Positions 7,935-31,422 of a DNA stretch of 35,325 nt are shown in pieces. The DNA comes from a virus (lineage: Duplodnaviria > Heunggongvirae > Uroviricota > Caudoviricetes), in IMG/VR virus record IMGVR_UViG_2671180296_000012, one strand, 5' to 3'. How positions within the stretch are numbered: position 1 is the stretch's first letter; each line of letters begins with the position of its first letter. Under the pieces are notes generated by a model. The model was not told where the DNA came from. It saw only the letters and a list, made by a program, of their open reading frames with translations, and did no database searches. Made by a program: the position numbers and the translations under genes.

Positions 7935-8894
7935 ATGAAAATTTGTATCGACGACGGCTCCACCAACATCAAGCTGGCATGGACTGAGAACGGCGAACGC
8001 CGCAACGCCATCAGCCCGAACAGCTTCAAGTCGGAATGGTCTGCGCCGTTCGGTGGCACGCAGCCCGCGAACTACATGCTTGATGGCGTGCGCTATGGCT
8101 TTGATCCGGTCAGCGATCGCTTTGTCCAGACGACCGACACGCAGTACCAGTACAGCGATGTGAATGTAGTTGCCATTCATCACGCACTGGTCAAATCAGG
8201 CATCACACCACAGGAAGTGGATGTGGTTGTCACCCTACCACTGAGCGAGTATTTCGACACAAACGCACAGCCGGACATGGCCAACATCAACCGCAAAAAA
8301 GCGAACGTCATGCGCCCGGCGGAGTACCAGAACGGCGAAGCATTCACTATCCGTAACGTACGGGTTATGCCTGAATCCATTCCGGCTGGCTTTAAAGCAC
8401 TGGCTGACATGAGTCCGTTTGAATCCCTGCTGATTGTGGATTTAGGCGGAACCACGCTGGATGTGGCAAAGGTTCAGGGACAACTGGCAGGTATCAGCCA
8501 GGTGTTTTGCGATCCACACGTAGGCGTTTCCCTGATGGCCGATGCCGTACTGTCGGTGATGGCCACTAACGGTATGCGTACCAGTCACCACATCGCCAAT
8601 ACCATTATCGAACATCGCCATGATGAAGCCTGGCTGCGCCAGCACATCCACAATGACGCGCATTACGACAGCCTGATGGCGGTTATTCGTGAAAAGGAAG
8701 AAACACTGAAACAACGCGTGATCCGCGCGCTGGCGGGTTTTTCGGGTTACGGGCGGGTGATGGTTGTCGGTGGAGGGGCGGAGATTGTGGCACCCGCTAT
8801 CCGCGAAGCCTGCGGAGTTAATGCGACTTTCATCGCGGACGGGGTGCCACAGTTTGCTCTGGTTAATGGGCTGTACGCAATGGACAAGGAGTAA
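7935..8894 (+). CDS. parM: actin-like segregation ATPase ParM/StbA homolog
   Basis: 319 aa; strong resemblance to plasmid R1 ParM as recalled (MKICIDDGSTNIKLAW, ISPNSFK, YSDVNVVAIHHAL, VMPESIPAG, LLIVDLGGTTLDV, VMVVGGGAE). Confidence 0.85.
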   Translation: MKICIDDGSTNIKLAWTENGERRNAISPNSFKSEWSAPFGGTQPANYMLDGVRYGFDPVSDRFVQTTDTQYQYSDVNVVAIHHALVKSGITPQEVDVVVTLPLSEYFDTNAQPDMANINRKKANVMRPAEYQNGEAFTIRNVRVMPESIPAGFKALADMSPFESLLIVDLGGTTLDVAKVQGQLAGISQVFCDPHVGVSLMADAVLSVMATNGMRTSHHIANTIIEHRHDEAWLRQHIHNDAHYDSLMAVIREKEETLKQRVIRALAGFSGYGRVMVVGGGAEIVAPAIREACGVNATFIADGVPQFALVNGLYAMDKE

Positions 8895-9270: not shown

Positions 9271-9795
9271 ATGAAAAAATACGAATACATGCTAATGAAA
9301 GAAGCACTGCGGGCTGGTCTGGCTCCCTGTCCTGTATCCGTAGAGGCTGTTGTTGGGAACACGATTTTCCGAACGCTGCGAAATCGCGTATCCGTGAAGA
9401 TGATTCATCAACCACCCAAATCTACCAGCATGATCTATCTGCCGCTGCCCGAGGCTATCAAACTTATGCGTTCGCTGAAATTTGCGATTTGGATGCAGAC
9501 ACAACTCAACAAAGCGGTGCAAAACACCTTCGTTAAGAAACTGATGCCGGAGCTTGCTGCCAGATGTGCAAAATGTACCAGACCCGCACTTCAATTTGAT
9601 CTGTCATTGATTCAACAAGCTACGGAGGCAGAACTATACCGCCTGTCACCTCTCCATGATGCTCACACGGAAGCCTCAGAAATGTTCCGGCTCATGTTTC
9701 AATTTAATTTTGCCGTTCGACGCACACACGTTCAGGTCAATCGCATGATGCAGGCGCAGGAAGAGCTGGCGCAACACAAAGGAGGCAACCAGTGA
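9271..9795 (+). CDS. hypothetical protein (accessory, A-Q hotspot)
   Basis: 174-aa ORF with GAGG upstream; stop overlaps the start of the next gene (GTGA). Confidence 0.55.
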   Translation: MKKYEYMLMKEALRAGLAPCPVSVEAVVGNTIFRTLRNRVSVKMIHQPPKSTSMIYLPLPEAIKLMRSLKFAIWMQTQLNKAVQNTFVKKLMPELAARCAKCTRPALQFDLSLIQQATEAELYRLSPLHDAHTEASEMFRLMFQFNFAVRRTHVQVNRMMQAQEELAQHKGGNQ

Positions 9796-10382
9796 GCAAG
9801 ATTGACTATCAGGCATTACGCGAACGTTATTCACCTGTGCCAGTACCGAAATGCCATATTTGCGGCGAGGAAATGTCAATTCAGCGAATATCTGGAGCAC
9901 AGGTTGTTTATGCCTGCTCCGGTTATGGTGATGATGGAGATTTCAAAATTGGTCGAACTCTTGCCGACGAACATTATGAAAAATCACGCGTAACAGTGTT
10001 GGATGTCGGGGATCCTGAAGTATTGGCGCTACTTGATTGGCTGGAAACTAAAGACAACCGAATCGCTGAACTGGAAAAAATCGCCACTGACTATGCACTT
10101 AAATTCCAGAAAGCACAGGACGCATTAAAGTACGCCGCTTTGCTGCATAGCCGAACGGCGCAACAAACCAATAATTTTGCAGTATTGCTTCCGGACATAA
10201 GCGAATATTTCATTAATAACGTATTTCAGCCCTTGCGATACGAGCGGGATGTTGAAAGAGCCATCATAAAGGCTGGCGGAAAAGCATTGTGGCAGGAGAA
10301 ACACGAGGACAGAACGCATCAGTCCTGCGATGTAAATTGTGGATGGTTTAGCCCACTGACGACAGATAAAAATAACACCTGA
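9792..10382 (+). CDS. hypothetical protein with N-terminal Cys cluster (accessory, A-Q hotspot)
   Basis: 196-aa ORF, GTG start overlapping upstream stop; CHICGEEM...YAC near N-terminus and SCDVNCGW near C-terminus. Confidence 0.55.
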   Translation: MSKIDYQALRERYSPVPVPKCHICGEEMSIQRISGAQVVYACSGYGDDGDFKIGRTLADEHYEKSRVTVLDVGDPEVLALLDWLETKDNRIAELEKIATDYALKFQKAQDALKYAALLHSRTAQQTNNFAVLLPDISEYFINNVFQPLRYERDVERAIIKAGGKALWQEKHEDRTHQSCDVNCGWFSPLTTDKNNT

Positions 10383-10394
10383 TCCCCCTCAAAC

Positions 10395-10520
10395 CAGGGC
10401 GATAATCGCGCATCGCCCTGCTGCACAATAGTGCACAAATTTGCACAATTTTTTTGAACGAATTTTTGCCCTTCCGGCCCGCGTGGCGACTGGATCCGTC
10501 AAGGATCCGTGCGTGCACAA
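10395..10520. repeat. palindrome CAGGGCGAT-N8-ATCGCCCTG followed by TGCACAA heptamers (three at exact 10-bp spacing at 10422/10432/10442, a fourth at 10514) and a tandem GGATCCGT pair
   Basis: Read directly from sequence; non-coding region between the accessory genes and Q, where P2-like phages carry cos. Confidence 0.4.
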
Positions 10521-10822
10521 AAAAACACACTTTTTCTGCGCGCAGGTGACGGGGGAACAGCCCGCGTTTCAGGGGGTAAATAGCGTTCCCTTAACGATGT
10601 CGCAGCGACACGACAGAATGGCCGTATTTCTCACGCTGAGCGTGAAAAATACGTGAGGGATTCTGGTTTGATGGGGTGAAAGGTAAGGCCGTCAAAATCG
10701 CACTGAGGCGGCGAGAACATGCAGTCAGCGCAGTGGGATTGCGTAAGAGTCTGACCGTCGATGATGGCAATAAGCAGGAAAGCGTCGTGAAATTATCTGA
10801 CTGATACAGGAGCTGGAGAGTC

Positions 10823-21556: not shown

Positions 21557-22157
21557 TTCACTGTTACCACCATCAGCCAGCAATTTCATGCGTTGTGCCG
21601 AAGCCGTCGGAACACGCATTACAGACATTCCGGTAGACCTCAACACGCTGTGGTCGCCGGACACCTGCCCGGCGCATCTGCTGCCTTATCTCGCCTGGGC
21701 GTTTTCCGTTGACCGCTGGGATCGCAACTGGCCGGAAGAGACAAAGCGACAGGTGATTCGTGATGCCTGGCTGATACACCGACACAAAGGGACCATCAGC
21801 GCACTGCGAAGAGCCGTGGAGCCTCTCGGCTACCTGATTGAAGTAAAGGAGTGGTGGCAACTCAACGAGGAGCCGGGAACATTTCGCATTGTTGTCGGAG
21901 TACTTGATCAGGGCATCACCGATGAAATGTATCAGGAACTTGAGCGCCTTATTGCGGATGCAAAACCAGTAAGTCGCCATCTGACGGGGCTGGCGATCAG
22001 CCTGAGTGTGAACGGAAAGATTTTCGTTGGTACGGGATGCTATCACGGCGATGCCCTGACGGTTTATCCCTACACCCCGGAGTCCATTATTGTCGAAGGG
22101 GATTATTTCTCTGCCCCGGCCATTCATTTAATTGATAATCTGAGAGTAAACGCATGA
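21549..22157 (+). CDS. I: baseplate/tail protein gpI
   Basis: ATG at 21549 overlapping the J stop; MSNSLLPPSAS..., LWSPDTCPAHLLPYLAWAFSVDRWD, LIADAKPVSRHL closely resemble P2 gpI. Confidence 0.85.
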   Translation: MSNSLLPPSASNFMRCAEAVGTRITDIPVDLNTLWSPDTCPAHLLPYLAWAFSVDRWDRNWPEETKRQVIRDAWLIHRHKGTISALRRAVEPLGYLIEVKEWWQLNEEPGTFRIVVGVLDQGITDEMYQELERLIADAKPVSRHLTGLAISLSVNGKIFVGTGCYHGDALTVYPYTPESIIVEGDYFSAPAIHLIDNLRVNA

Positions 22158-23767
22158 CAGTGAAATACTACGCCATTCTGACTAATCAGGGCGCGGCACG
22201 ACTGGCTAACGCGACGATGCTCGGCAGTAAGCTGAATCTGACGCAAATGGCCGTTGGTGATGCAAATGGTGTGTTACCAACACCAGACCCTGCACAAACA
22301 AAACTGATTAACCAGAAACGCATTGCACCGCTGAATCTTCTGAGTGTTGACCCTAACAATCAGAGCCAGATTATTGCGGAGCAAATCATCCCTGAAAACG
22401 AGGGAGGATTCTGGATCCGTGAGATTGGTCTTTATGATGATGAAGGTGTACTCATTGCGGTGGCAAACTGCCCGGAAACGTACAAACCGCAGTTGCAGGA
22501 AGGCAGTGGACGCACCCAGACTATCCGCATGATTCTGGTTGTCACGAACACCGAAGCCATCACGCTGAAAATCGACCCGTCTGTGGTTCTGGCAACCCGC
22601 AAATATGTGGATGATAAAATCTCAGAGCACGAACAGTCACGACGTCACCCGGACGCCTCGCTGACCGTAAAAGGTTTTACTCAGTTAAGCAGTGCAATTA
22701 ACAGTGAATCAGAAACACTGGCCGCAACACCGAAAGCGGTTAAGGCTGCATATGACCTGGCTAACGGGAAATATACCGCCCAGAACGCCACCACTACACA
22801 AAAAGGAATTGTTCAGCTCAGTAGCGCCACGAACAGCACGTCTGAAACGCTGGCAGCGACACCAAAATCTGTTAAGGCGGTAATGGATGAAACGAACAAG
22901 AAAGCACCATTAAACAGCCCGGCACTGACCGGAACGCCAACAACACCAACAGCGCCACAGGGGACTAATGATACCCAGATCGCAAGCACAGCTTTCGTTA
23001 TGGCCGCGATTACCGCACTTGTAGATTCGTCACCTGATGCACTGAACACGCTGAACGAACTGGCTGCGGCGCTGGGCAATGACCCGAATTTTGCGACCAC
23101 CATGACTAACGCGCTTGCGGGTAAGCAACCGAAGGATGCCACCCTGACGGCGCTGGCGGAGCTTGCTACATCAGCAGATAAACTCCCATATTTTACAGGG
23201 GCAGATCGTGCCGCGTTAACCGCGTTGACGAGTGTTGGACGTGCCATTCTTGGTAAAACCAGCACTCAGGGAGTTCTTGATTACCTTGGTTTGGGAGAAG
23301 GCTCTGCATTACCTGTTGGTGTCCCTGTTCCGTGGCCTTCAGCCACTCCGCCAACAGGCTGGCTGAAATGCAACGGAGCAGCTTTTTCTGCTGAAGAATA
23401 CCCGGAACTGGCAAAGGCTTACCCGACAAATAAATTGCCAGATTTACGTGGTGAGTTTATTCGTGGCTGGGATGACGGGCGTGGTATTGATGCTGGACGT
23501 GCTTTATTGAGCCTTCAGGCTGGGATGCTGGAAAAACACCGCCATATTGTTGTTGCCAATGATGGTTACGACACAAAAGATGAATGGGAACTGGCTACGA
23601 TTTTCAAAAAAACATACACACAAGGACGGGGACTTGATGCCACAAATACAGGAGGGAGTCTGATCCCATCACCGACACTTCATTCACGAGGGAGTATCGG
23701 TAATACTGGCGGGAGTGAGACCCGTCCACGAAATATTGCATTTAACTTTATCGTGAGGGCTGCATAA
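22154..23767 (+). CDS. H: tail fibre protein gpH (conserved N-terminal part plus currently expressed variable C-terminus)
   Basis: 537 aa; conserved N-terminus; C-terminal motif PVPWPSATPPTGWLKCNGAAF typical of tail-fibre receptor-binding tips; contains the left crossover site. Confidence 0.9.
   Translation: MTVKYYAILTNQGAARLANATMLGSKLNLTQMAVGDANGVLPTPDPAQTKLINQKRIAPLNLLSVDPNNQSQIIAEQIIPENEGGFWIREIGLYDDEGVLIAVANCPETYKPQLQEGSGRTQTIRMILVVTNTEAITLKIDPSVVLATRKYVDDKISEHEQSRRHPDASLTVKGFTQLSSAINSESETLAATPKAVKAAYDLANGKYTAQNATTTQKGIVQLSSATNSTSETLAATPKSVKAVMDETNKKAPLNSPALTGTPTTPTAPQGTNDTQIASTAFVMAAITALVDSSPDALNTLNELAAALGNDPNFATTMTNALAGKQPKDATLTALAELATSADKLPYFTGADRAALTALTSVGRAILGKTSTQGVLDYLGLGEGSALPVGVPVPWPSATPPTGWLKCNGAAFSAEEYPELAKAYPTNKLPDLRGEFIRGWDDGRGIDAGRALLSLQAGMLEKHRHIVVANDGYDTKDEWELATIFKKTYTQGRGLDATNTGGSLIPSPTLHSRGSIGNTGGSETRPRNIAFNFIVRAA
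22670..22905 (+). repeat. tandem protein-level repeats inside gpH (two copies of about 35 aa)
   Basis: KGFTQLSSAINSESETLAATPKAVKAAYDLANGKY and KGIVQLSSATNSTSETLAATPKSVKAVMDETNKK, read from the translation. Confidence 0.6.
23274..23299. promoter_or_regulatory. left crossover site for DNA invertase (hix/gix-like, TTCTTGATTACC-TT-GGTTTGGGAGAA) inside gpH
   Basis: 26-bp site with a 2-bp core; partner site in inverted orientation at 25140-25165 with complementary core (AA). Confidence 0.6.
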
Positions 23768-24375
23768 TGGATAACGCAGTATTAAATAGCGAGTTTATTG
23801 CCACGAAGGCGGGGAATATTACCGTCTATAACTACGATGGTGAAACTCGGGAATATATTTCTGCATCAACTGAATATCTTGCAGTGGGTGTCGGTATTCC
23901 AGCATATTCCTGTTTAGACGCTCCTGGTACATATAAGGCTGGTTATACAATTTGCCGTTCTGTAGATTTAAATTCATGGGAATATGTGCCAGACCATCGC
24001 GGTGAAATCGTCTATAACACCGAAACGGGAGATGCCAAAGAAATCACAGCACCGGGTGATTACCCCGAAAATACAACCACTATCGCCCCATTAACGCCAT
24101 ACGATAAATGGGATGGTGAGAAATGGGTGACCGATACTGAGGCACAGCATAGCGCCGCAGTAGACGCGGCAGAAGCACAGCGTCAGTCACTGATTGATAC
24201 TGCAATGGCTTCCATTAGTCTGATTCAGCTGAAATTACAGGCCGGACGGAATCTGACGCAGTCAGAAACCAGCCGACTTAACACGGTGTTGGATTACATT
24301 GACGCGGTGACGGCAACAGATACCAGCACCGCGCCGGATGTTATCTGGCCTGAACTGCCGGAGACTGCACAATAA
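23767..24375 (+). CDS. G: tail fibre assembly chaperone gpG (for the currently expressed fibre tip)
   Basis: 202-aa ORF immediately after gpH with ATGA overlap. Confidence 0.8.
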   Translation: MDNAVLNSEFIATKAGNITVYNYDGETREYISASTEYLAVGVGIPAYSCLDAPGTYKAGYTICRSVDLNSWEYVPDHRGEIVYNTETGDAKEITAPGDYPENTTTIAPLTPYDKWDGEKWVTDTEAQHSAAVDAAEAQRQSLIDTAMASISLIQLKLQAGRNLTQSETSRLNTVLDYIDAVTATDTSTAPDVIWPELPETAQ

Positions 24376-24544
24376 ACTCACCATCAATATATAAATCCCC
24401 CTGCTGTGTGTCAGCAGGGCATTCTTTCCATATTAATGATGGATGGAATCTTCCTTCAGGATTAATTTCCGTTATCTCTTCTACTTTATTTTCTTCAATT
24501 CTTGCCCACATATGAACCTCACCAGTAAATATAAACTGCGCCAT
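24341..24544 (-). CDS. putative alternative tail fibre assembly chaperone (start uncertain; track ORF extends to 24769)
   Basis: Minus-strand ORF inside the invertible segment; ATG at 24544 (MAQFIF...) overlaps the stop of the alternative fibre cassette; upstream in-frame starts would overlap that cassette by 170-250 nt. Confidence 0.35.
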   Translation of the reverse strand: MAQFIFTGEVHMWARIEENKVEEITEINPEGRFHPSLIWKECPADTQQGDLYIDGEFIVQSPAVQAR

Positions 24545-25152
24545 CTGCTCCGGCACCCGACTGACCCGTTGATGAATTAGGACATAATCCAGCACCGCCA
24601 CCTCCAGGCCCAACTGCTGATACCGCTTTTCCGTTAGCTGTATCTCTGAATGAACCTGCTCCTCCGGGGCCACCACCAGAACCACCATTACCAGCTCCCG
24701 ATGCGGCAGAAGCAATGGAACCTGGAGAACCTGGCCCAAGCGATGTATTAATTGTTCCCCCGACACCAACTGCGCCTAACCCTCCGGAAGGCTGGCCTCC
24801 GCTATAGCCTCCGGAAGCTGACATGTAAGTCCCGAAACTGCTCGAGCCACCATTTTTACCGTTTACAGAAATACCAGACACAGGCGCACCACCGGCACCA
24901 ACCGTAATCGAAACACTGTTTATACCAGTTAAATCTACCAGCCCCTCAGCAACTCCGCCCCCACCACCTCCTCCGCCACATGTAACGGCTGAAGCGGTTG
25001 TTGAACCTATCCCTCCTGACGCACCGCCACCAATAACTTTGACGTAACATTTTCTTCCATTGCGCAACTCTTCAGGAACAGTCCAGCTTGTTACTCCAGC
25101 CGTTGTGAAGGCAACCAGATTTCTGAACCCAAATGAACCTTCTCTCAAACCA
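24519..25152 (-). CDS. silent alternative tail-fibre C-terminal cassette (glycine-rich), no start codon of its own
   Basis: Minus-strand ORF reading into the right crossover site. Manual inversion between the two sites joins it in frame to gpH, giving ...DYLGLREGSFGFRNLVAFTTAGVTSWTVPEE..., which matches the translated minus-strand ORF. Confidence 0.65.
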
Positions 25153-25165
25153 ACGTTTAAGAAAA
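25140..25165. promoter_or_regulatory. right crossover site for DNA invertase (TTCTCTCAAACC-AA-CGTTTAAGAAAA)
   Basis: Resembles hix/gix/cix sites as recalled; inverted relative to the site at 23274-23299; lies just upstream of the invertase gene. Confidence 0.6.
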
Positions 25166-25220
25166 TGCAGAGATTACGGCTAACTGGCATCATCCCCGGT
25201 TTTTATTCAGGGGATCCATC

Positions 25221-25820
25221 ATGCTTATTGGCTATGTCCGCGTATCAACAAATGACCAGAATACAGAATTGCAGCGTAACGCGCTGGAGTGCGCAGGATG
25301 TGAACTGATTTTTGAAGATAAAATCAGCGGAACGAAATCAGCCAGACCGGGATTGAAAAAACTGCTCAGAACGCTATCAGAAGGAGATACGCTGGTTGTC
25401 TGGAAGCTGGACAGACTGGGCAGAAGTATGAAACACCTGATCACGCTTATTGAGGAATTGCGGGAAAAAGGTGTTAATTTCCGTAGTCTGACGGACAGCA
25501 TTGACACATCAACACCCATGGGGCGTTTCTTTTTTCACGTCATGGGAGCTTTAGCCGAAATGGAACGTGAATTAATTGTAGAGCGTACACTGGCCGGGCT
25601 GGCAGCAGCACGCGCACAAGGACGCATTGGCGGACGTCGCCCGAAGTTGACAAAAGAACAACACGAGCAAATAGCGAGGCTGATTAAAAACGGTCATGAC
25701 AGGAAACAACTGGCGATCATTTACGACATCGGCATATCGACGATTTATCGTTATCACCCTGTAGGCGATATACAGGCTGAAGAAACAACCAGGCAGATTC
25801 AGGAAAATGAAAACCGCTAA
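25221..25820 (+). CDS. serine DNA invertase (Hin/Gin/Cin/Pin family)
   Basis: 199 aa; N-terminal catalytic region GYVRVSTNDQ with conserved serine, and a C-terminal HTH (GISTIYRY). Confidence 0.9.
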   Translation: MLIGYVRVSTNDQNTELQRNALECAGCELIFEDKISGTKSARPGLKKLLRTLSEGDTLVVWKLDRLGRSMKHLITLIEELREKGVNFRSLTDSIDTSTPMGRFFFHVMGALAEMERELIVERTLAGLAAARAQGRIGGRRPKLTKEQHEQIARLIKNGHDRKQLAIIYDIGISTIYRYHPVGDIQAEETTRQIQENENR

Positions 25821-25846: not shown

Positions 25847-26341
25847 TCAAAACAGCCCTTTAACGGAGCTGGCCGCGCTGTTAAGGGATGATGTGACCTT
25901 ATCTTTGAAGCCGGACAGCATATCACTGAACGATGAGGATTGCAGGCGCTCCCGCAAATCCTCATCACAGCGTTCAAGAGTCAGTGAAAATTCTATCTTT
26001 TTCGCCTTACCGTAGCGATCAAACTCGGAGCGGGTCGTATTCGTTTCAGTCAGTACATACATGCCGTAAATCTGCCCGACACCATCAATCAGAGGCCAGG
26101 GGCGTCCTGTATATGCCTGCGTGGTCAGCAACGAAAGCGACACTTCGCCACCTGTAATTTCAGGATAAAGCACACCAGAAAGAACGATGCGATCATCGCC
26201 TGCCCCGATATACTGCCAGCTTGCTGAACGGTTAACGCGTTCATTTTTCACATGCCGCCAGCTTTTATTTTGCTGTAACTGCTGATGCGGCAATGTGCGC
26301 AGCTCAAAAACAAACATGCCGTAGATCATCATCATGGCCAT
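25847..26341 (-). CDS. U: tail protein gpU
   Basis: 164 aa; GRPWPLIDGVGQIYGMYVL, KIEFSLTL resemble P2 gpU. Confidence 0.85.
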   Translation of the reverse strand: MAMMMIYGMFVFELRTLPHQQLQQNKSWRHVKNERVNRSASWQYIGAGDDRIVLSGVLYPEITGGEVSLSLLTTQAYTGRPWPLIDGVGQIYGMYVLTETNTTRSEFDRYGKAKKIEFSLTLERCDEDLRERLQSSSFSDMLSGFKDKVTSSLNSAASSVKGLF

Positions 26342-26347
26342 GACTCC

Positions 26348-29191
26348 TCAATCTTTATCGTAAAAACTGCCACGTCCGGCACGGTCGCGTCGTTCCAATT
26401 CTGCCCTGACCATTTCACCGACCAGTTTCGCCAGTTCGCGGGGATTCTGCGTAACAACGTTATGCAGATGAACATGAATTTCACCGCCAAATCCGGAGAC
26501 AGCAGGCTCCCGATTACGGGAAGCTGCAGGAACTGATGCCACTGGCGATCGTATGGCCTCCGCCACCGGGCGGGAGCTGGCCGCAACAACAGGGACCAGC
26601 GCCGGAGGCAGAGGAGTCGGGACCACGGGTGTGATGTTGATTGCGGAAGCAGGCTTACTGACCTGCGCAATCTTCCGCTCCTGCCACTCCCCACGAACAG
26701 CAAGTGCGCGGGGCAGGTTCTTAAAGACAATATCGCCGGGGCCAATGCGTTTTTTCGTCTCATCAACCAGCTTACCTGTGTTATCAGCAATTTTGCTGAG
26801 TCTGCGTAGCGTACCGGTATTGCTGTCTGTGAGCGGTTTGTTGTCTTTGGGTTTATCACCTCCGGTGCCATTGCCATTTTCCACAGGCTTCGGCGGATTG
26901 ATTTTCGCAAGGTCCCCCTGAAGCAAGGCAACCTTGTCCTGAAGAATGGCCGCACGCTGTGCGTCTTCGATTTTCTTTCTCGCCCTTTCCGCTTCATCCG
27001 GAAGAACACCGAGTTTTTCAAGTATCCACGCCAGCGTATCCAGCAACATTTTTGCAGGCGTCAGAACAAGCTGTAACGCGCCACCAAGAACGTTACCGAA
27101 TATCTCGCCAGCACTGGTACATTTATCCAGCGTTTCCTTGCTGGACTCCATCGGTGACAGCAGCGATTTAAACCAGTTAAACACCTGGCTGATCCCGCTT
27201 CCGATTGCGTCAAAAACAGGACCAAACTGTTCAAAGGTTTCGCGCAACGGGATCAGCCTTTCCATAATCCCGCTGAACACCCCGGCAAAAAATGCCCTGA
27301 TGGGATCCCAGTATTTCCAGATAAGAACGGCAGCTCCGGCAAGCGCAGCCACGATAAGACCAACCGGACTGAACAGCGCCCCGATAGCGCCTCCCAGCAA
27401 AGAAACGGAACCCGTCACCATTCCCCATAGTGCTGGCAGGACCCTGACAGCATTCATTGATCCGGTCAGGAGAGAAAAACCAAGACGCAGTTTTGCCAGC
27501 GGGCCAGCAAGCACACCAATAGCCAGCGACAACGAGCCAACCGTTGCAGTCATTGCCAGCAACGCACCGCCTGCTATCAGTAGCTGGCGCGTCAGTGTCG
27601 GATGGGCCTGCGCCAGCGCCGTCACCCTTGATACCACCCGTGTGAGCCACTGCGTGACAGAACGCAGCGGACCGTCAATCAGATCTGCAATGCGGATGCG
27701 CAACCCTTCCCATGCACTGCCGAGTGATTTCAGATCGCCGTCAAGGTTGTTGGCCATAACCTTTGCTGTGCGTTCAGCCTCACCGCGTGCGCCTTCAAGT
27801 TCTTTTCTCAGTTTGGGTAAGGAACCGTCACCTGCCGCATCAACGAGGGCCATAAACGATGTGAAAGCCTCTTCCCCGGCGATGTCCTTAAAGAAGGATA
27901 CCCGGTCAACTTCCCCGTATTTGCGGGTGGCTTTATAAAGGTCGGCCAGCACATCCTCCATCGGGCGCATTTTGCCGTTCGCGTCAGAAACTGCCACACC
28001 AAGCTCTTTCAGCGCCTCTGCCGCCGCCTTTGGCGGTGATGCCAGACGAGCCAGGCTGGCACGCATTGCCGTCCCGGCATCACTCCCTCTGATGCCCATA
28101 TTCGCCAGCACGCCAGCCATCGCTGCGGCCTGCTCCAGCGATATTCCCAGCTTACCCGCCACCGGACCTGCATATTTCATGGTTTCGCCCAGTGCGCGAA
28201 GGTCAGTGTTGGTACGGGTAAACGCTGCGGTGAGTGTGTCACCGACCCGGTCCATCTGGTCAGCAGAAAGGCCGAACTGCGTCAGGATATTTGAGCCAAT
28301 ATCTGCCGTCTCGCCGAGATCCATACCGCCAGCCGTTGCCATGCTCAGCACGCCGGGAAGCGCAGCCTGAATGGCCTGTGGAGTGAAGCCAGCCATTGCA
28401 AGAAATGCCTGTCCACTGGCGGCATCGCCTGCGGTGAACTGCGTTTCAGAGCCAAGTTTTAACGCCTGCTCACGCAGCGCCTTAAACTGCGGGCTGTTCT
28501 GGTCGATTCGCGTCAGTGCCTGAACGCGGGACATCTCTTTCCCGAACCCGATCGCAGGCTGCAAAAAACGCCCGGTAGCATAGCCGCCAGCCGCTGCCGC
28601 ACCAATTGCCAGCGCACCACCTGTTTTCAGTTTTCCCGCGGTTTCCTGCGCGCGCGAATACCGCTCACGCGCCCGCGTTACACGCGCAAGCGCCTGCCGT
28701 TCGCGTTCAAGCTGGTTGTTGTACTGTTCGGTGCGTCTGATGGCCTGCTGGATGGTGTTATCGCTGCCTGTCAGGGAAATGCCGTGGCGTTTCAGCTCTC
28801 CGCCAAGTTCCCGCATTTTCTGAATTTCCCGTGTGCGCGATTCATTCAGGCGTTCAAGCCGGGTGCTTAACTGCTGCATCAGCTTTTGTTGTTTTTCGCT
28901 GAGCACTGTACCCGTGCGTTGTAACTGATTAAGGGCGTTAAGCTGGCGTCGTGCTTTCAATATGCCAGCATCCGCTTTACTGACAGCGTCACGGGCGCGC
29001 TCAAATGAACGCGCCTGACGCTCGAGATTTTTGATCGCCCCCTGAGTTCGCTGGATGGAGTCACCAAACTGCCCCATCAGGCGGCGGGCGTTTTCGGCAG
29101 GCCGGGTCAGCCTGTCAACGGCGCTGAAAGCGACCCGGATATCAAGAGTCTTCATTGTCTGCATTCCCGCTGCGAAGTGCCGCCCGCTCAC
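26348..29191 (-). CDS. T: tail tape measure protein gpT
   Basis: 947 aa; long coiled-coil N-terminal region, Ala/Gly-rich hydrophobic middle, position between E' and U. Confidence 0.9.
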   Translation of the reverse strand: MSGRHFAAGMQTMKTLDIRVAFSAVDRLTRPAENARRLMGQFGDSIQRTQGAIKNLERQARSFERARDAVSKADAGILKARRQLNALNQLQRTGTVLSEKQQKLMQQLSTRLERLNESRTREIQKMRELGGELKRHGISLTGSDNTIQQAIRRTEQYNNQLERERQALARVTRARERYSRAQETAGKLKTGGALAIGAAAAGGYATGRFLQPAIGFGKEMSRVQALTRIDQNSPQFKALREQALKLGSETQFTAGDAASGQAFLAMAGFTPQAIQAALPGVLSMATAGGMDLGETADIGSNILTQFGLSADQMDRVGDTLTAAFTRTNTDLRALGETMKYAGPVAGKLGISLEQAAAMAGVLANMGIRGSDAGTAMRASLARLASPPKAAAEALKELGVAVSDANGKMRPMEDVLADLYKATRKYGEVDRVSFFKDIAGEEAFTSFMALVDAAGDGSLPKLRKELEGARGEAERTAKVMANNLDGDLKSLGSAWEGLRIRIADLIDGPLRSVTQWLTRVVSRVTALAQAHPTLTRQLLIAGGALLAMTATVGSLSLAIGVLAGPLAKLRLGFSLLTGSMNAVRVLPALWGMVTGSVSLLGGAIGALFSPVGLIVAALAGAAVLIWKYWDPIRAFFAGVFSGIMERLIPLRETFEQFGPVFDAIGSGISQVFNWFKSLLSPMESSKETLDKCTSAGEIFGNVLGGALQLVLTPAKMLLDTLAWILEKLGVLPDEAERARKKIEDAQRAAILQDKVALLQGDLAKINPPKPVENGNGTGGDKPKDNKPLTDSNTGTLRRLSKIADNTGKLVDETKKRIGPGDIVFKNLPRALAVRGEWQERKIAQVSKPASAINITPVVPTPLPPALVPVVAASSRPVAEAIRSPVASVPAASRNREPAVSGFGGEIHVHLHNVVTQNPRELAKLVGEMVRAELERRDRAGRGSFYDKD

Positions 29192-29378
29192 GCCAGCTAA
29201 CCACTTCGCCGGGCGTCATCATGAAGATTTCGGCGGGCGACCAGTTAAAAATGGCGGCAATATCCGCCACAAAGTCTTCTATGTGCTCAAAGCACACAAC
29301 CGTGATCAGGCTTCCGTCGCCTGTTCGTTCTTCCCGCCAGAGTCCGCACCGCTCAAAAAATTTACGGCAACCACACAT
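29142..29378 (-). CDS. E' extension, expected to be made as an E+E' fusion by programmed -1 frameshift at TTTTTTG (plus-strand 29354-29360)
   Basis: Slippery heptamer near the 3' end of gene E; the -1 frame continues as FFERCGLWREER...VCFEHIEDFVADIAAIF for 78 codons, overlapping the start of T. Confidence 0.6.
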   Translation of the reverse strand: MCGCRKFFERCGLWREERTGDGSLITVVCFEHIEDFVADIAAIFNWSPAEIFMMTPGEVVSWRERAALRSGNADNEDS

Positions 29379-29671
29379 AACTGAATAAAGTCACGGGATG
29401 CCATTTTTTTGATCGTCACTTCATCCAGTCGCGGTGATGTCACGCGTGACAGCAGCGTAAACATGGATTCCGCTTTCAGATTCAGCACATCAGACAGCGA
29501 CAAATCTCGCAGAGATCCAGCCTGCTCAATAGCCCCGGTGATCTCCACATACGTGATTTTTTCGCTGCCTCGCTCAATTGGTTGGGTAAGTTTTACGCCA
29601 CGCTCACTGGTTTCTTTCACAGTGTCAGCAACTACCGTGTTTTCGGTATCGATGTTTTTCGTCTCTTTCAT
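29306..29671 (-). CDS. E: tail assembly chaperone gpE
   Basis: 121-aa ORF between FII and T containing the slippery site. Confidence 0.8.
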   Translation of the reverse strand: MKETKNIDTENTVVADTVKETSERGVKLTQPIERGSEKITYVEITGAIEQAGSLRDLSLSDVLNLKAESMFTLLSRVTSPRLDEVTIKKMASRDFIQLCVVAVNFLSGADSGGKNEQATEA

Positions 29672-29725
29672 CAGGAAACTCCTTTCAGTCAGAGGCGACG
29701 CACTGCGCCGCCTGCATATTACTTA

Positions 29726-30238
29726 TCAGCCAAGCCCGAGCGCGGAACGGATGCGATCGGGCACAATGTCCTTGCCGTCCTTCCGGTAAATGAAGTTCAG
29801 CAGGTCAATCTCCCACAACGGGCGATCGTTAACACTCAGCTTGTAGTAGGTGTTTTTAATGGCGTAAGTGTGTGATGTGGCTTCGCCCTGTTTGGCTTCC
29901 CCCATATCAATTTCCGTCACACGTCCGCGCATTTCGACTTCATACAGGTCGCTTTCTGCATCGGTGTAGTATTCACCCGCAAAACGCAGCAGCGTGCCGT
30001 CAATCGTGCCGCCATACTTAAGGAACAGCTCACGAACTGCGCCCCCCATGACAAAGCTCGCATCAAGCGCGGAGTCATCCAGACCGAGATCAATACTTAC
30101 CGCTCCCATCATGCCACCACCCCGGTAGCTGTCGGTTTTGCGCGTCAGCTTAGGCAAAGTGACGGACGTCACCTTACCCACTTCGTTTTCACCATCCACA
30201 AACAGCGTAAAAAAGCGAAGATGTTTTGGCACAGCCAT
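29726..30238 (-). CDS. FII: tail tube protein gpFII
   Basis: 170 aa; VTLPKLTRK, DLGLDD, LRFAG resemble P2 FII. Confidence 0.9.
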   Translation of the reverse strand: MAVPKHLRFFTLFVDGENEVGKVTSVTLPKLTRKTDSYRGGGMMGAVSIDLGLDDSALDASFVMGGAVRELFLKYGGTIDGTLLRFAGEYYTDAESDLYEVEMRGRVTEIDMGEAKQGEATSHTYAIKNTYYKLSVNDRPLWEIDLLNFIYRKDGKDIVPDRIRSALGLG

Positions 30239-31422
30239 CAGGCACCTCCCAGCACCGCAAATGCGGGTTCAAAGTATTCATCAGTAAACGTCTGGTAAAG
30301 CTCCATGTCTTCCAGTGGCGGAACGGGCGTATATTTGTAGCGAATACGCACACGCCCCTGACGTAAATCCGTGGTGCTGTTATCCACCACGTCATACCAG
30401 CACTCCGCGCCAATCAGTTTCCCGGCAGTCACCAGTGAATCCAGTTTTGCCCTGATGGCACTGATAACATCCTTCACGTTCGCAGGCGTCAGTGGACTGT
30501 CGATGGTTTCAAACTGCGCTTCCGCAATTGAATCAGCCAGCACCTGTGCGGTTCGGGTATACACCTCAAAAATGTAGGCGTTCGTTTCCGGTGTGCGGTT
30601 GCCCCAGAAGCGGAACCCGTTGCGACGAATAATGGTCGTGATTTCTTTGTTGTTGAGGCTGTTGGCATCGCTGTCTTCGGCCTGCAACGACCAGAACACA
30701 TGCCTCGACATCCCCAGCACATTTTTAACCGGAACGTTGGACAGCGATTTGTGCCAGCCCTGCTCATGGTCAATGTACGCACGAAGGCCGCACGCATAGG
30801 CAGGCGCGGGGAACGTTTCGTTTTCGCCACTTTTCGGGTTGTAGGCGATGAAGTCCGGCCATAAGAGCATCACTTCACGTTCGTTGAATTTCTGGCGGTA
30901 GGTAATCGCTTCAGCCATCGTGTTACAGCCGTGACATGAGGCATACACAAATGCGCGCAGTTTACCCGCAATCACGCACAGGGATTTTGTCACCGCCTCC
31001 GTGTCCAGCTCCGGCGCGGCCAGAATACGCGGACGGTATCCGATGCTTTCATCCTGCTCTGCAACAAGCAGCGCATACATCCCCGTATAGCTGCCGTCAT
31101 CCTCAGAACCACCGATAACCAGTTGATCCTGCGTCTTTTCGTCTTCTTCTTTGTGTTCAGCCACGCGAACGACGATCACCTTTGTGCTCACCTGGTCTGC
31201 GATGGCCTTAAGCGCACGATAAAGCGTCCCCGTTGTTCCGCATTTTCCCAGCACGTCATTGACGCGGGTCAGCAGTGTGGGCTTGTTCAGCGGGAACAGC
31301 TTCGCGTCCGCATCATCCGCCGTTGCCACGATACCGATAACGCTGGAATCAACATCGTTAATCGCTGTTACCAGGTCGGTATTTTCCGTAACACGGGTAC
31401 CATGAAAACGAGTTTCACTCAT
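30238..31422 (-). CDS. FI: tail sheath protein gpFI
   Basis: 394 aa; start overlaps the FII region as in P2; size and position fit the tail sheath. Confidence 0.9.
   Translation of the reverse strand: MSETRFHGTRVTENTDLVTAINDVDSSVIGIVATADDADAKLFPLNKPTLLTRVNDVLGKCGTTGTLYRALKAIADQVSTKVIVVRVAEHKEEDEKTQDQLVIGGSEDDGSYTGMYALLVAEQDESIGYRPRILAAPELDTEAVTKSLCVIAGKLRAFVYASCHGCNTMAEAITYRQKFNEREVMLLWPDFIAYNPKSGENETFPAPAYACGLRAYIDHEQGWHKSLSNVPVKNVLGMSRHVFWSLQAEDSDANSLNNKEITTIIRRNGFRFWGNRTPETNAYIFEVYTRTAQVLADSIAEAQFETIDSPLTPANVKDVISAIRAKLDSLVTAGKLIGAECWYDVVDNSTTDLRQGRVRIRYKYTPVPPLEDMELYQTFTDEYFEPAFAVLGGA

Follow-up and report, generated by a model that had tools for sequence, protein, structure and literature searches.

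The window, by which we mean the whole 35,325-nt stretch of DNA that was analyzed (IMG/VR record IMGVR_UViG_2671180296_000012), carries a prophage with the P2 gene set (Q P O N M L X Y K R S V W J I H G FI FII E T U D ogr). The P2 gene order is not kept: the block U-T-E-FII-FI lies on the opposite strand, between an invertase gene and gpD, unlike in L008 and KC618326, both of which retain the order of P2. The prophage is P2-like in content, and its gene order is a lineage variant. The invertase was considered as the cause of the inverted tail block (U to FI), a candidate that was dropped because the block ends contain neither a Din-like site nor a long inverted repeat.

The features surrounding the tail-fibre gene gpH are collected in Table 1. 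The constant N-terminal part of the fibre is located outside a segment bracketed by two crossover sites, while two opposed C-terminal parts are encoded inside it, both in frame with the constant part. The plus strand of the segment encodes a collar tip and gpG/Tfa and the minus strand a glycine-rich tip and a 56-aa ORF, each tip being followed by its own partner gene (the collar tip by Tfa, the glycine-rich tip by the 56-aa putative chaperone). A GC-rich hairpin at the center of the segment, 24 nt past the gpG stop codon and within the 56-aa ORF, is partly kept in a distant homologue, L010. All five ORFs of the switch are intact. A first-pass annotation of this DNA had described a bracketed segment of about 1.87 kb holding both tips and their partner genes; every element that it named was found where it had been claimed, and the site centers are 1,866 bp apart. 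An identical gpH is encoded in the assembly GCA_001264195.1 (contig LFZI01000022.1).

Table 1. Features of the gpH locus (positions are those of the window)
Feature	Position	Strand	Remarks
Constant N-terminal gpH part, aa 1-378	22154-23286	+	Pfam Phage_tail_fib, Phage_fiber_2
Left crossover site, dix-type 12-2-12, core TT	23274-23299	.	Inside gpH coding frame (...LDYLGLGEG)
Expressed variable gpH tip, collar-domain tail-fibre tip, ~160 aa	23287-23767	+	Pfam Collar PF07484
gpG/Tfa-type tail-fibre assembly chaperone, 202 aa	23767-24375	+	Pfam Caudo_TAP E 4e-32
GC-rich hairpin, terminator-like on both strands	24399-24419	.	Terminator scan; cassette center
56-aa partner gene, putative minimal tail-fibre chaperone	24341-24511	-	Directly after stop codon of the Gly-rich tip
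Parked alternative gpH tip, predicted TNF-like/glycine-rich receptor-binding domain, ~210 aa	24519-25152	-	Pfam Gly_rich_2
Right crossover site, core AA	25140-25165	.	55 nt upstream of invertase ATG
Short leader (ATGATG...), outside the segment	25153-25193	-	ORF list; its frame continues into the tip parked at the time
Din-family serine DNA invertase, 199 aa	25221-25820	+	Pfam Resolvase, HTH_7; catalytic motif YVRVSTNDQ
Putative Fis-dependent recombinational enhancer	25239-25310	+	nt 19-90 of invertase gene

The two tips share no sequence similarity, and their predicted folds differ. The expressed tip matches the PHROG tail collar fibre families (E 5e-75), and gpG matches the tail fibre assembly family phrog_105 (E 5e-98). 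The C-terminus of the parked tip is intact in comparison to 63 homologues, with the nearly invariant C-terminal residues of the family kept. Its AF2 model (pLDDT 93.4) yields Foldseek matches to the Pam3 fibre gp24 and the Bxb1 tail tip (E 5e-7 to 1e-5; for Pam3 7ypx_A, E 5e-6 and TM 0.61), and on the basis of this model the tip is predicted to consist of a TNF-like plus a glycine-rich domain of the Pam3 gp24 type.

The partner of the parked tip had been proposed as a small putative chaperone, and two observations favor that assignment. The gene, which has a GAGG 5 nt ahead of its ATG, accompanies Gly-rich tips in three genomic settings as a conserved pair, and the best PDB match to the predicted fold of its product is a tail-fibre chaperone. 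The resemblance of the 56-aa protein to the Pam3 and Mu chaperones is confined to their fibre-binding domain; the C-terminal helical trimerization domain of such two-domain chaperones is absent. It thus looks like a chaperone that has kept no more than the fibre-binding domain and serves glycine-rich tips specifically, a candidate function suggested by the model and the conserved pairing. Should this be confirmed, no smaller chaperone of the type would be known, and the protein would be handy for fibre engineering. In public records the Gly-rich tip and its partner are either absent or wrongly annotated (for example as an out-of-frame "hypothetical protein" of 115 aa or as a 224-aa ORF), so that half of the receptor-binding repertoire is invisible to host-range prediction.

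The left crossover site reads TTCTTGATTACC-TT-GGTTTGGGAGAA (TTCTCCCAAACC-AA-GGTAATCAAGAA on the opposite strand) and is identical at 25/26 positions to the published p15B site mixQ''R' and at 22/26 to pixL; the right site, TTCTCTCAAACC-AA-CGTTTAAGAAAA, matches the published e14 pixR at 24/26. The two conform to the dix consensus at 13/15 and 14/15 specified positions (hand count, with the consensus read as 12-2-12). They are inverted relative to each other, and their core dinucleotides, TT and AA, are compatible with inversion. Two inverted 26-bp crossover sites, one in gpH and one ahead of the invertase gene, had been claimed at first pass; their positions are borne out, a comparison to known Din-type sites places them close to published mix and pix sites, and the window contains no others. 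A scan for the Din-type 17-mer TTCTCYCAAACCAASGT allowing up to three mismatches returned exactly two occurrences in 35 kb, both with zero mismatches (chance expectation 0.24; at least two matches in 2 of 100 shuffles). A shufflon like that of p15B or of one EPEC prophage would need a third crossover site, and the same whole-window scan found none.

The inner arms of the sites form the longest inverted repeat between positions 22000 and 26000 (23283-23304 and 25135-25156, 19/22 identical). We rejected this repeat as statistical evidence: at least 19/22 was reached in 3 of 30 shuffles of the 4-kb region, so the bare repeat is unexceptional. The deciding evidence for a switch is comparative rather than statistical. 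In four draft assemblies a contig ends at the identical base within the left site. Such ends could also arise if the cassette is repeated in further prophages of the same genome.

The invertase, which the first-pass annotation had described as Hin/Gin-type, is a Din-family (Hin/Gin/Cin/Pin) serine recombinase according to Pfam (Resolvase, E 6e-52; HTH_7, E 1e-12), structure matches (E 1e-91 to Mu Gin 4m6f/3uj3 vs 1e-31 to gamma-delta resolvase), and sequence identity (73% to Gin, 75% to Cin, and 82% to K-12 PinE; overall range for Gin, Cin, and PinE 73–84%). The characterized Din invertases can substitute for one another functionally, and the present protein is closely related to them. It belongs to the DNA invertase family phrog_125 (E 6e-99) and shares the motif MLIGYVRVSTNDQ unchanged with Gin, Cin, and PinE. 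The C-terminal domain matches both the Hin DNA-binding domain (1hcr) and Gin; likeness to the two is about equal, and a specifically Hin-like DNA-binding domain was accordingly rejected.

The putative enhancer, nt 19-90 of the invertase gene, corresponds by homology to the Cin enhancer as annotated for P1, with high conservation at the DNA level. Synonymous codons are identical in 6/19 cases in this stretch vs 7/93 in the rest of the gene (Fisher p = 0.009). Two G-N13-C 15-mers, at nt 22-36 and 71-85 of the gene, are conserved, with centers 49 bp apart. The corresponding spacing in the Hin enhancer is 48 bp, so the enhancer is assigned here by homology only. The switch may be Fis-dependent.

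When the segment is inverted in silico at the central dinucleotides (TT on one strand, AA on the opposite one), an open gpH frame of 588 aa results, compared to 537 aa in the present state, with the junction ...VLDYLGL-REGSFGFRNLVAFTTAGV... The in-frame joining of the alternative cassette to the constant gpH part that had been worked out by hand is therefore reproduced, and it has a natural counterpart: the E. coli protein P0001, in which the Gly-rich tip is fused in frame to constant gpH, is 99% identical to the predicted fusion over all 588 aa (7 substitutions). The locus of P0001, L003, is a prophage ~97% identical to the present one in which the segment is flipped. The alignment is co-linear to position 23301, inverted across 23286-25156, and has its breakpoints inside both the left and the right site; the constant gpH part is unmoved in both switch states. 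Because this relative is ~97% and not 100% identical, the comparison is one between lineages and not within a clone.

The same cassette is found beside pinE in complete E. coli genomes, in the native orientation in H1-H3 and flipped in 15 genomes; these orientations were called from assemblies, not reads. Both orientations thus occur between genomes (L003/P0001, and beside pinE). The P2 constant gpH part joined to the Gly-rich tip was found in 0/5,426 complete E. coli genomes and came to light only through the protein database, as P0001. The segment is also 99.7% identical to a copy in an e14/Mu-type prophage of E. coli S1-IND-01-A, and elsewhere that copy is seen either way round. On its left the exchanged module is bounded by the left crossover site, which makes it a clean example of a cassette passing between different tail architectures, in this case with an unrelated Mu/e14-type tail module.

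These observations make it very probable that the tail fibre of this P2-like prophage is governed by a two-state site-specific inversion switch of the Din family (Gin/Cin/Pin/Hin type). Differences in orientation could in principle be due to rare homologous (RecA) recombination between short inverted repeats or to assembly error, instead of the invertase. The inner arms do share 19/22 nt, and the reliance on assemblies leaves room for error; RecA recombination, however, usually needs repeats far longer than these. Both orientations recur across many independent complete genomes, and the breakpoints lie in sequences identical at 24–25 of 26 positions to biochemically defined Din sites, beside a Din invertase. 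Moreover, the homologous e14 segment was inverted Pin-dependently in experiment. We therefore regard recombination or misassembly as an extremely improbable source of the two orientations.

According to the site-specific switch model, invertase dimers would bind both 26-bp sites and form a synaptic complex that includes the Fis-bound enhancer near the beginning of the invertase gene. Cutting at the central AA/TT dinucleotides, rotation, and religation would then flip the 1,866-bp segment. In the present state the constant 378-aa part of gpH would be fused to the collar tip and co-transcribed with the Tfa chaperone; in the flipped state it would be fused to the TNF-like/glycine-rich tip and co-transcribed with the 56-aa mini-chaperone. 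As gpH would carry either of two tips, a lysogen population would release two kinds of virion differing in receptor specificity. The segment presumably inverts in this strain, and the prophage likely encodes two receptor-binding specificities, with host range changing on a flip; the folds of the tips are unrelated, and one of them resembles a solved receptor-binding domain.

It is also conceivable that the Din architecture is retained without meaningful flipping at present, whether because the sites are weak, the invertase is silent, or the enhancer has decayed, in which case the Gly-rich cassette would be an unexpressed relic. The evidence on orientation comes from comparisons between genomes, a simple scan found no sigma-70-like promoter for the invertase, and the left outer half-site departs from the Din consensus (GTAA for GTTT). 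In a relative, KC618326, the right site is interrupted by 16 inserted nt, which indicates that such decay does occur. The deviant half-site, however, is identical to a half-site of a published functional p15B site. Likewise, the intactness of all five ORFs, the retention of the nearly invariant C-terminal residues in the Gly-rich tip, and an invertase with its catalytic motif kept and 97% identity to that of the flipped relative all argue against a relic, as does the near-identity of the segment to the copy seen in both orientations elsewhere. A frozen locus is thus quite improbable, and we favor a switch that is still functional.

The leader outside the segment opens a further possibility, which adds to the host-range switch and does not replace it. 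Together with the parked Gly-rich tip it forms a 224-aa ORF (24519-25193), and the parked tip could be translated from the ATG at 25193 as a free receptor-binding protein that masks surface receptors of the lysogen against other phages, thereby defending the host; the product would be the 224-aa protein now and a collar-tip protein after a flip. Besides the open frame itself, the leader geometry is the same at K-12 e14 stfE/pinE, and most relatives carry the leader. In addition, inversion of the e14 P segment is reported to create StfE2, which blocks T2 adsorption (PMC12529663). Against such a dual use, the ribosome-binding context is weak, with GGGG directly against the ATG, and the gap between the leader and the start of the divergent invertase gene is only 27 nt, so there is no room for a promoter of its own outside the invertase gene; a promoter scan found none at the leader. 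The leader was also rejected as a conserved peptide, as its codons change freely, its amino acids vary (MMPVSRNLCIFLNVGL vs MMPFACYFFIFINVGL), and L003 is without it. Overall, we consider dual use unlikely. If true, every flip would alter both the hosts open to the released phage and the range of phages that the lysogen excludes.

Inversion of tail-fibre genes by Din-type recombinases is a textbook system since Mu, P1, and e14. The present switch adds nothing to it conceptually, given that inversion in e14 and in P2-like prophages has already been documented experimentally. Like Mu G/Gin and P1 C/Cin, it combines an adjacent serine invertase (Fis-enhancer-dependent in Mu and P1) with 26-bp sites, one of which is in the fibre gene, and it would swap the C-terminus of the fibre in frame together with its own chaperone (S/U vs S'/U'). 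The enhancer of Mu and P1 is in the 5' end of the invertase gene, the same place as the putative one here. The G and C segments, in contrast, are 3.0 and 4.2 kb in size with long variable parts, compared to 1,866 bp; the gix core of Mu is GA rather than AA; and both tips in Mu and P1 belong to one family with Tfa-type chaperones, whereas two unrelated folds are predicted here. The p15B Min system shares the left site, including the unusual GGTAATCAAGAA half-site, but has six sites and many permutations where the present locus has two sites and two states.

[quoted passage not shown] In both cases the partner gene is directly downstream of the fibre gene. Pam3 gp25, at 162 aa, comprises a fibre-binding beta-sandwich (residues 1-55) and a helical trimerization domain, of which the 56-aa protein corresponds to the first only. 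Sequence identity between the Pam3 and present proteins is low (22–25%), and Pam3, a cyanophage, is without an inversion switch.

The P2-like prophages of EPEC E2348/69 are, by description, of the same phage type with the same kind of switch (Goldberg et al. 2014, PMC4272514). In two of them both orientations coexist in clonal cultures, as determined by sequencing and PCR (PMC4272514), and a survey remarks that the P2 Z/fun hotspot often contains DNA invertases. One of the EPEC loci has three repeats and forms a four-state shufflon, in contrast to the present two-state switch.

The e14 P segment with PinE, inversion of which was demonstrated by sequencing, PCR, and qPCR (PMC4272514, PMC12529663), shares the whole layout: a constant fibre part, a site, a tip with its chaperone, a reversed chaperone and tip, a second site, a leader stub, and the invertase gene. 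The segments are of similar size (1,797 bp in e14 vs 1,866 bp), and the inner repeat TTGGTTTGGGAGAAGG is the same as the published e14 repeat. The invertase is longer at its C-terminus than PinE (199 vs 184 aa), and the K-12 P segment holds StfP/TfaP and StfE/TfaE tips, with no Gly-rich tip and 56-aa partner. While e14 is a cryptic element with a short StfP, the present locus belongs to a complete-looking P2-like prophage with a 378-aa constant gpH part of the P2 type.

The prophage very probably carries an active two-state Din-type switch, in which inversion would fuse the constant part of the tail-fibre protein gpH (residues 1–378) to either of two tips, and each tip would share a transcript with its partner gene. 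Based on these alternative tips and partners, we propose that virions with two different specificities would emerge from induced lysogens. In the window, a P2-like prophage, the integrase sits at the left end; a replication gene and the genes for portal, terminase, capsid, and lysis precede baseplate genes V, W, J, and I.

Genes of the tail-fibre region and BLAST alignments of the window to L003, a prophage with the cassette flipped
Feature	Coordinates (nt)	Strand or orientation	Length or identity
Tail-fibre gene H	22154-23767	+	537 aa
Tfa-type chaperone gpG	23767-24375	+	202 aa
Small ORF	24341-24511	-	56 aa
Glycine-rich ORF, open from 25193	24519-25152	-	about 210 aa
Serine recombinase	25221-25820	+	199 aa
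BLAST alignment to L003	12155-23301	co-linear	97.1%
BLAST alignment to L003	25221-33378	co-linear	97.2%
BLAST alignment to L003	23286-25156	inverted	92-95%

The two 26-bp crossover sequences quoted in the first-pass annotation lie at 23274-23299 and 25140-25165. The inner arms of these sites make up the region's longest inverted repeat (19 of 22), which by itself is not above chance, being reached in 3/30 shuffles of the 4-kb region. A scan of the 35-kb window for the Din-type 17-mer, tolerating up to three mismatches, returned exactly two matches where 0.24 were expected, both with zero mismatches. Compared with a published table of Din-family sites (PMC3241671), the left site, which reads TTCTCCCAAACC-AA-GGTAATCAAGAA on the other strand, is identical at 25/26 positions to mixQ''R' of plasmid p15B and at 22/26 to pixL, while the right site matches pixR of e14 at 24/26. 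The inner repeat TTGGTTTGGGAGAAGG has exactly the sequence reported for the P segment of e14 (PMC12529663), and the core dinucleotides of the two sites are compatible, as inversion demands. In KC618326, a P2-like phage of E. coli O157:H43 T22, a 16-nt insertion splits the outer half-site from the core of the right site (about 10440-10554, aligned to window 25125-25226), which may disable the switch there.

An in silico flip of the 1,866-bp segment, with both sites cut between the central dinucleotides (TT; AA on the other strand), yields an unbroken 588-residue gpH reading ...VLDYLGL-REGSFGFRNLVAFTTAGV..., exactly the in-frame junction that the first-pass annotation had proposed. The strongest evidence for the switch is the natural occurrence of both orientations, which were looked for between genomes. 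A search with the predicted fusion retrieved an E. coli protein of the same length (P0001; 99% identical over 100% of the query, with seven substitutions), whose contig (GCA_025300295.1, L003) carries the same prophage type with the glycine-rich gpH and small ORF on the plus strand and Tfa and the collar tip on the minus strand, ahead of the invertase. The limits of the co-linear and inverted alignments place the breakpoints within both sites. Among complete E. coli genomes, the cassette adjoins pinE in the window orientation in the matches H1-H3 and is flipped in 15 genomes (e.g., H56 and H57, at 98% coverage). Many database gpH entries are partial, dozens of them 405-448 residues long, and contigs of four independent E. 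coli draft assemblies (L014-L017) end at the same nucleotide, equivalent to window 23284 and 11 nt into the left site; these shared ends could stem from cultures that contained both orientations when sequenced, or from further copies of the cassette in the same genomes. Inversion has been demonstrated by sequencing, PCR, and qPCR for the e14 segment, which is homologous to this one (PMC4272514, PMC12529663), and also in two P2-like prophages of EPEC (PMC4272514). Because of these experiments and the evidence between genomes, it is very unlikely that the flips are due to RecA or are assembly artefacts.

The expressed tip has a phage tail collar domain and matches tail-collar-fibre PHROGs, and its chaperone gpG is of the usual Caudo_TAP type. 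The parked tip falls in Pfam Gly_rich_2, and a comparison with the collar tip detected no similarity. Its AlphaFold model, built on 64 sequences, is confident (pLDDT 93.4, pTM 0.89) and matches the cyanophage Pam3 fibre (7ypx_A; E 5e-6, TM 0.61), the mycobacteriophage Bxb1 tail tip (E 5e-7), and, more weakly, the ALK/LTK glycine-rich domain.

Family searches with the 56-residue ORF gave zero matches. It is a real gene, because a GAGG ribosome-binding site immediately follows the tip stop codon, in an unrelated prophage that lacks an invertase a 64% identical homologue occupies the same junction behind a glycine-rich fibre of just 53% identity, and a counterpart fills the gpG slot behind a glycine-rich gpH in a Budvicia P2-like prophage, also without an invertase. 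In Pam3 gp25, 55 residues form a beta-sandwich that binds the fibre and a helical domain mediates trimerisation (PMC9608196), whereas the protein encoded here corresponds to the first of these domains only. Based on its position and predicted fold, and as the first-pass annotation had suggested for a small minus-strand gene, we regard this protein, conserved beside glycine-rich fibres, as a putative minimal chaperone.

A GC-rich hairpin (24399-24419), terminator-like on both strands, lies midway along the invertible segment, within the 56-residue coding sequence and 24 nt past the gpG stop; a hairpin is partly retained in a distant homologue (L010). Public annotation of the parked cassette is faulty (L001 5059-5406; L004 12188-12535 and 12366-13040), missing the true tip and the 56-aa gene. 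What is called instead is either an out-of-frame "hypothetical protein" of 115 aa, covering the small gene and the end of the glycine-rich tip, or an ORF of 224 aa starting outside the segment.

The recombinase is of the Hin/Gin type, as first proposed: it contains Resolvase and HTH_7 domains and the catalytic motif YVRVSTNDQ, matches Mu Gin crystal structures at E 1e-91 as against E 1e-31 for gamma-delta resolvase, and shares 73% of its residues with Gin, 75% with Cin, and 82% with K-12 PinE. The Cin enhancer is annotated in the P1 record at nt 19-90 of cin, and the homologous stretch here (25239-25310) is strongly conserved as DNA. Among codons whose amino acid is invariant across four invertase genes, 6/19 are identical within the stretch versus 7/93 elsewhere (Fisher p = 0.009). 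Two G-N13-C 15-mers are also conserved, at nt 22-36 and 71-85 of the gene. These observations fit a putative Fis enhancer, short of proof. With all parts intact, it is improbable that the switch is frozen in this strain. Also improbable, and compatible with the two-state switch, is a dual use in which translation from a leader ATG at 25193 would turn the parked tip into a free protein that masks receptors. StfE2 is reported to be such a protein (PMC12529663) and the leader geometry is the same as in K-12, but the leader is unconserved as a peptide, has a poor ribosome-binding context, and is absent from L003.

Among complete E. coli genomes, the strongest DNA matches begin at the left site. 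The Mu/e14-type prophage of E. coli S1-IND-01-A (L001) shows no relation to the window up to 23282, is 99.7% identical (seven mismatches) between 23283 and about 25205, a stretch that takes in the right site, and then falls to 70-90% identity within the invertase gene. The invertible segment has thus recently passed between P2-type and Mu/e14-type tail modules, with the left limit of the exchange at the crossover point. Compared with the e14-type pinE of L001 (5918-6493), the invertase (window 25200-25820) slides from 90% to about 50-70% identity toward its 3' end and has a C-terminus 15 aa longer; the gene is itself mosaic.

The tail genes U, T, E', E, FII, and FI (25847-31422, minus strand) form a 5.6-kb block between the invertase and gpD that is inverted relative to the canonical P2 order. 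This inverted order is common to L002, L003, and L004, while L008 (7655-9683) and KC618326 (11198-17500) keep the canonical one; neither a Din-like site nor a long inverted repeat was found at the ends of the block. A hotspot between the replication gene and portal, with zero PADLOC defence matches, encodes a ParM/StbA-type actin-like segregation protein (7935-8894, plus strand; Pfam E 1e-81, 1e-68) and an Ead/Ea22-like protein (9792-10382, plus strand). A plasmid-partition ATPase inside an integrated P2-like prophage is unexpected. A 45-aa Phage_fiber_2 repeat (ATPKAVKAAYDLANGKYTAQNATTTQKGIVQLSSATNSTSETLA) differs in copy number among otherwise near-identical fibres, with two copies in the constant part of gpH (22154-23286) and three in the database protein P0039.

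The initial observation is thus confirmed and its interpretation supported. We found no description of such a switch in which a glycine-rich tip of the Pam3 type is paired with a single-domain partner of 56 aa, or of a near-identical segment common to two tail architectures. The switch mechanism is classical. Based on the deposited P2-like phages with an annotated invertase (KC618326, 500465-2, pro483, and S164), a survey noting frequent invertases at the P2 Z/fun hotspot, and the inversion already demonstrated by experiment in P2-like prophages, the locus belongs to an already known kind of system. It shares with the Din family its recombinase type, likeness to characterised members, site structure, and inversion observed between genomes, and its architecture is that of the tail-fibre switches Mu G, P1 C, and e14 P.
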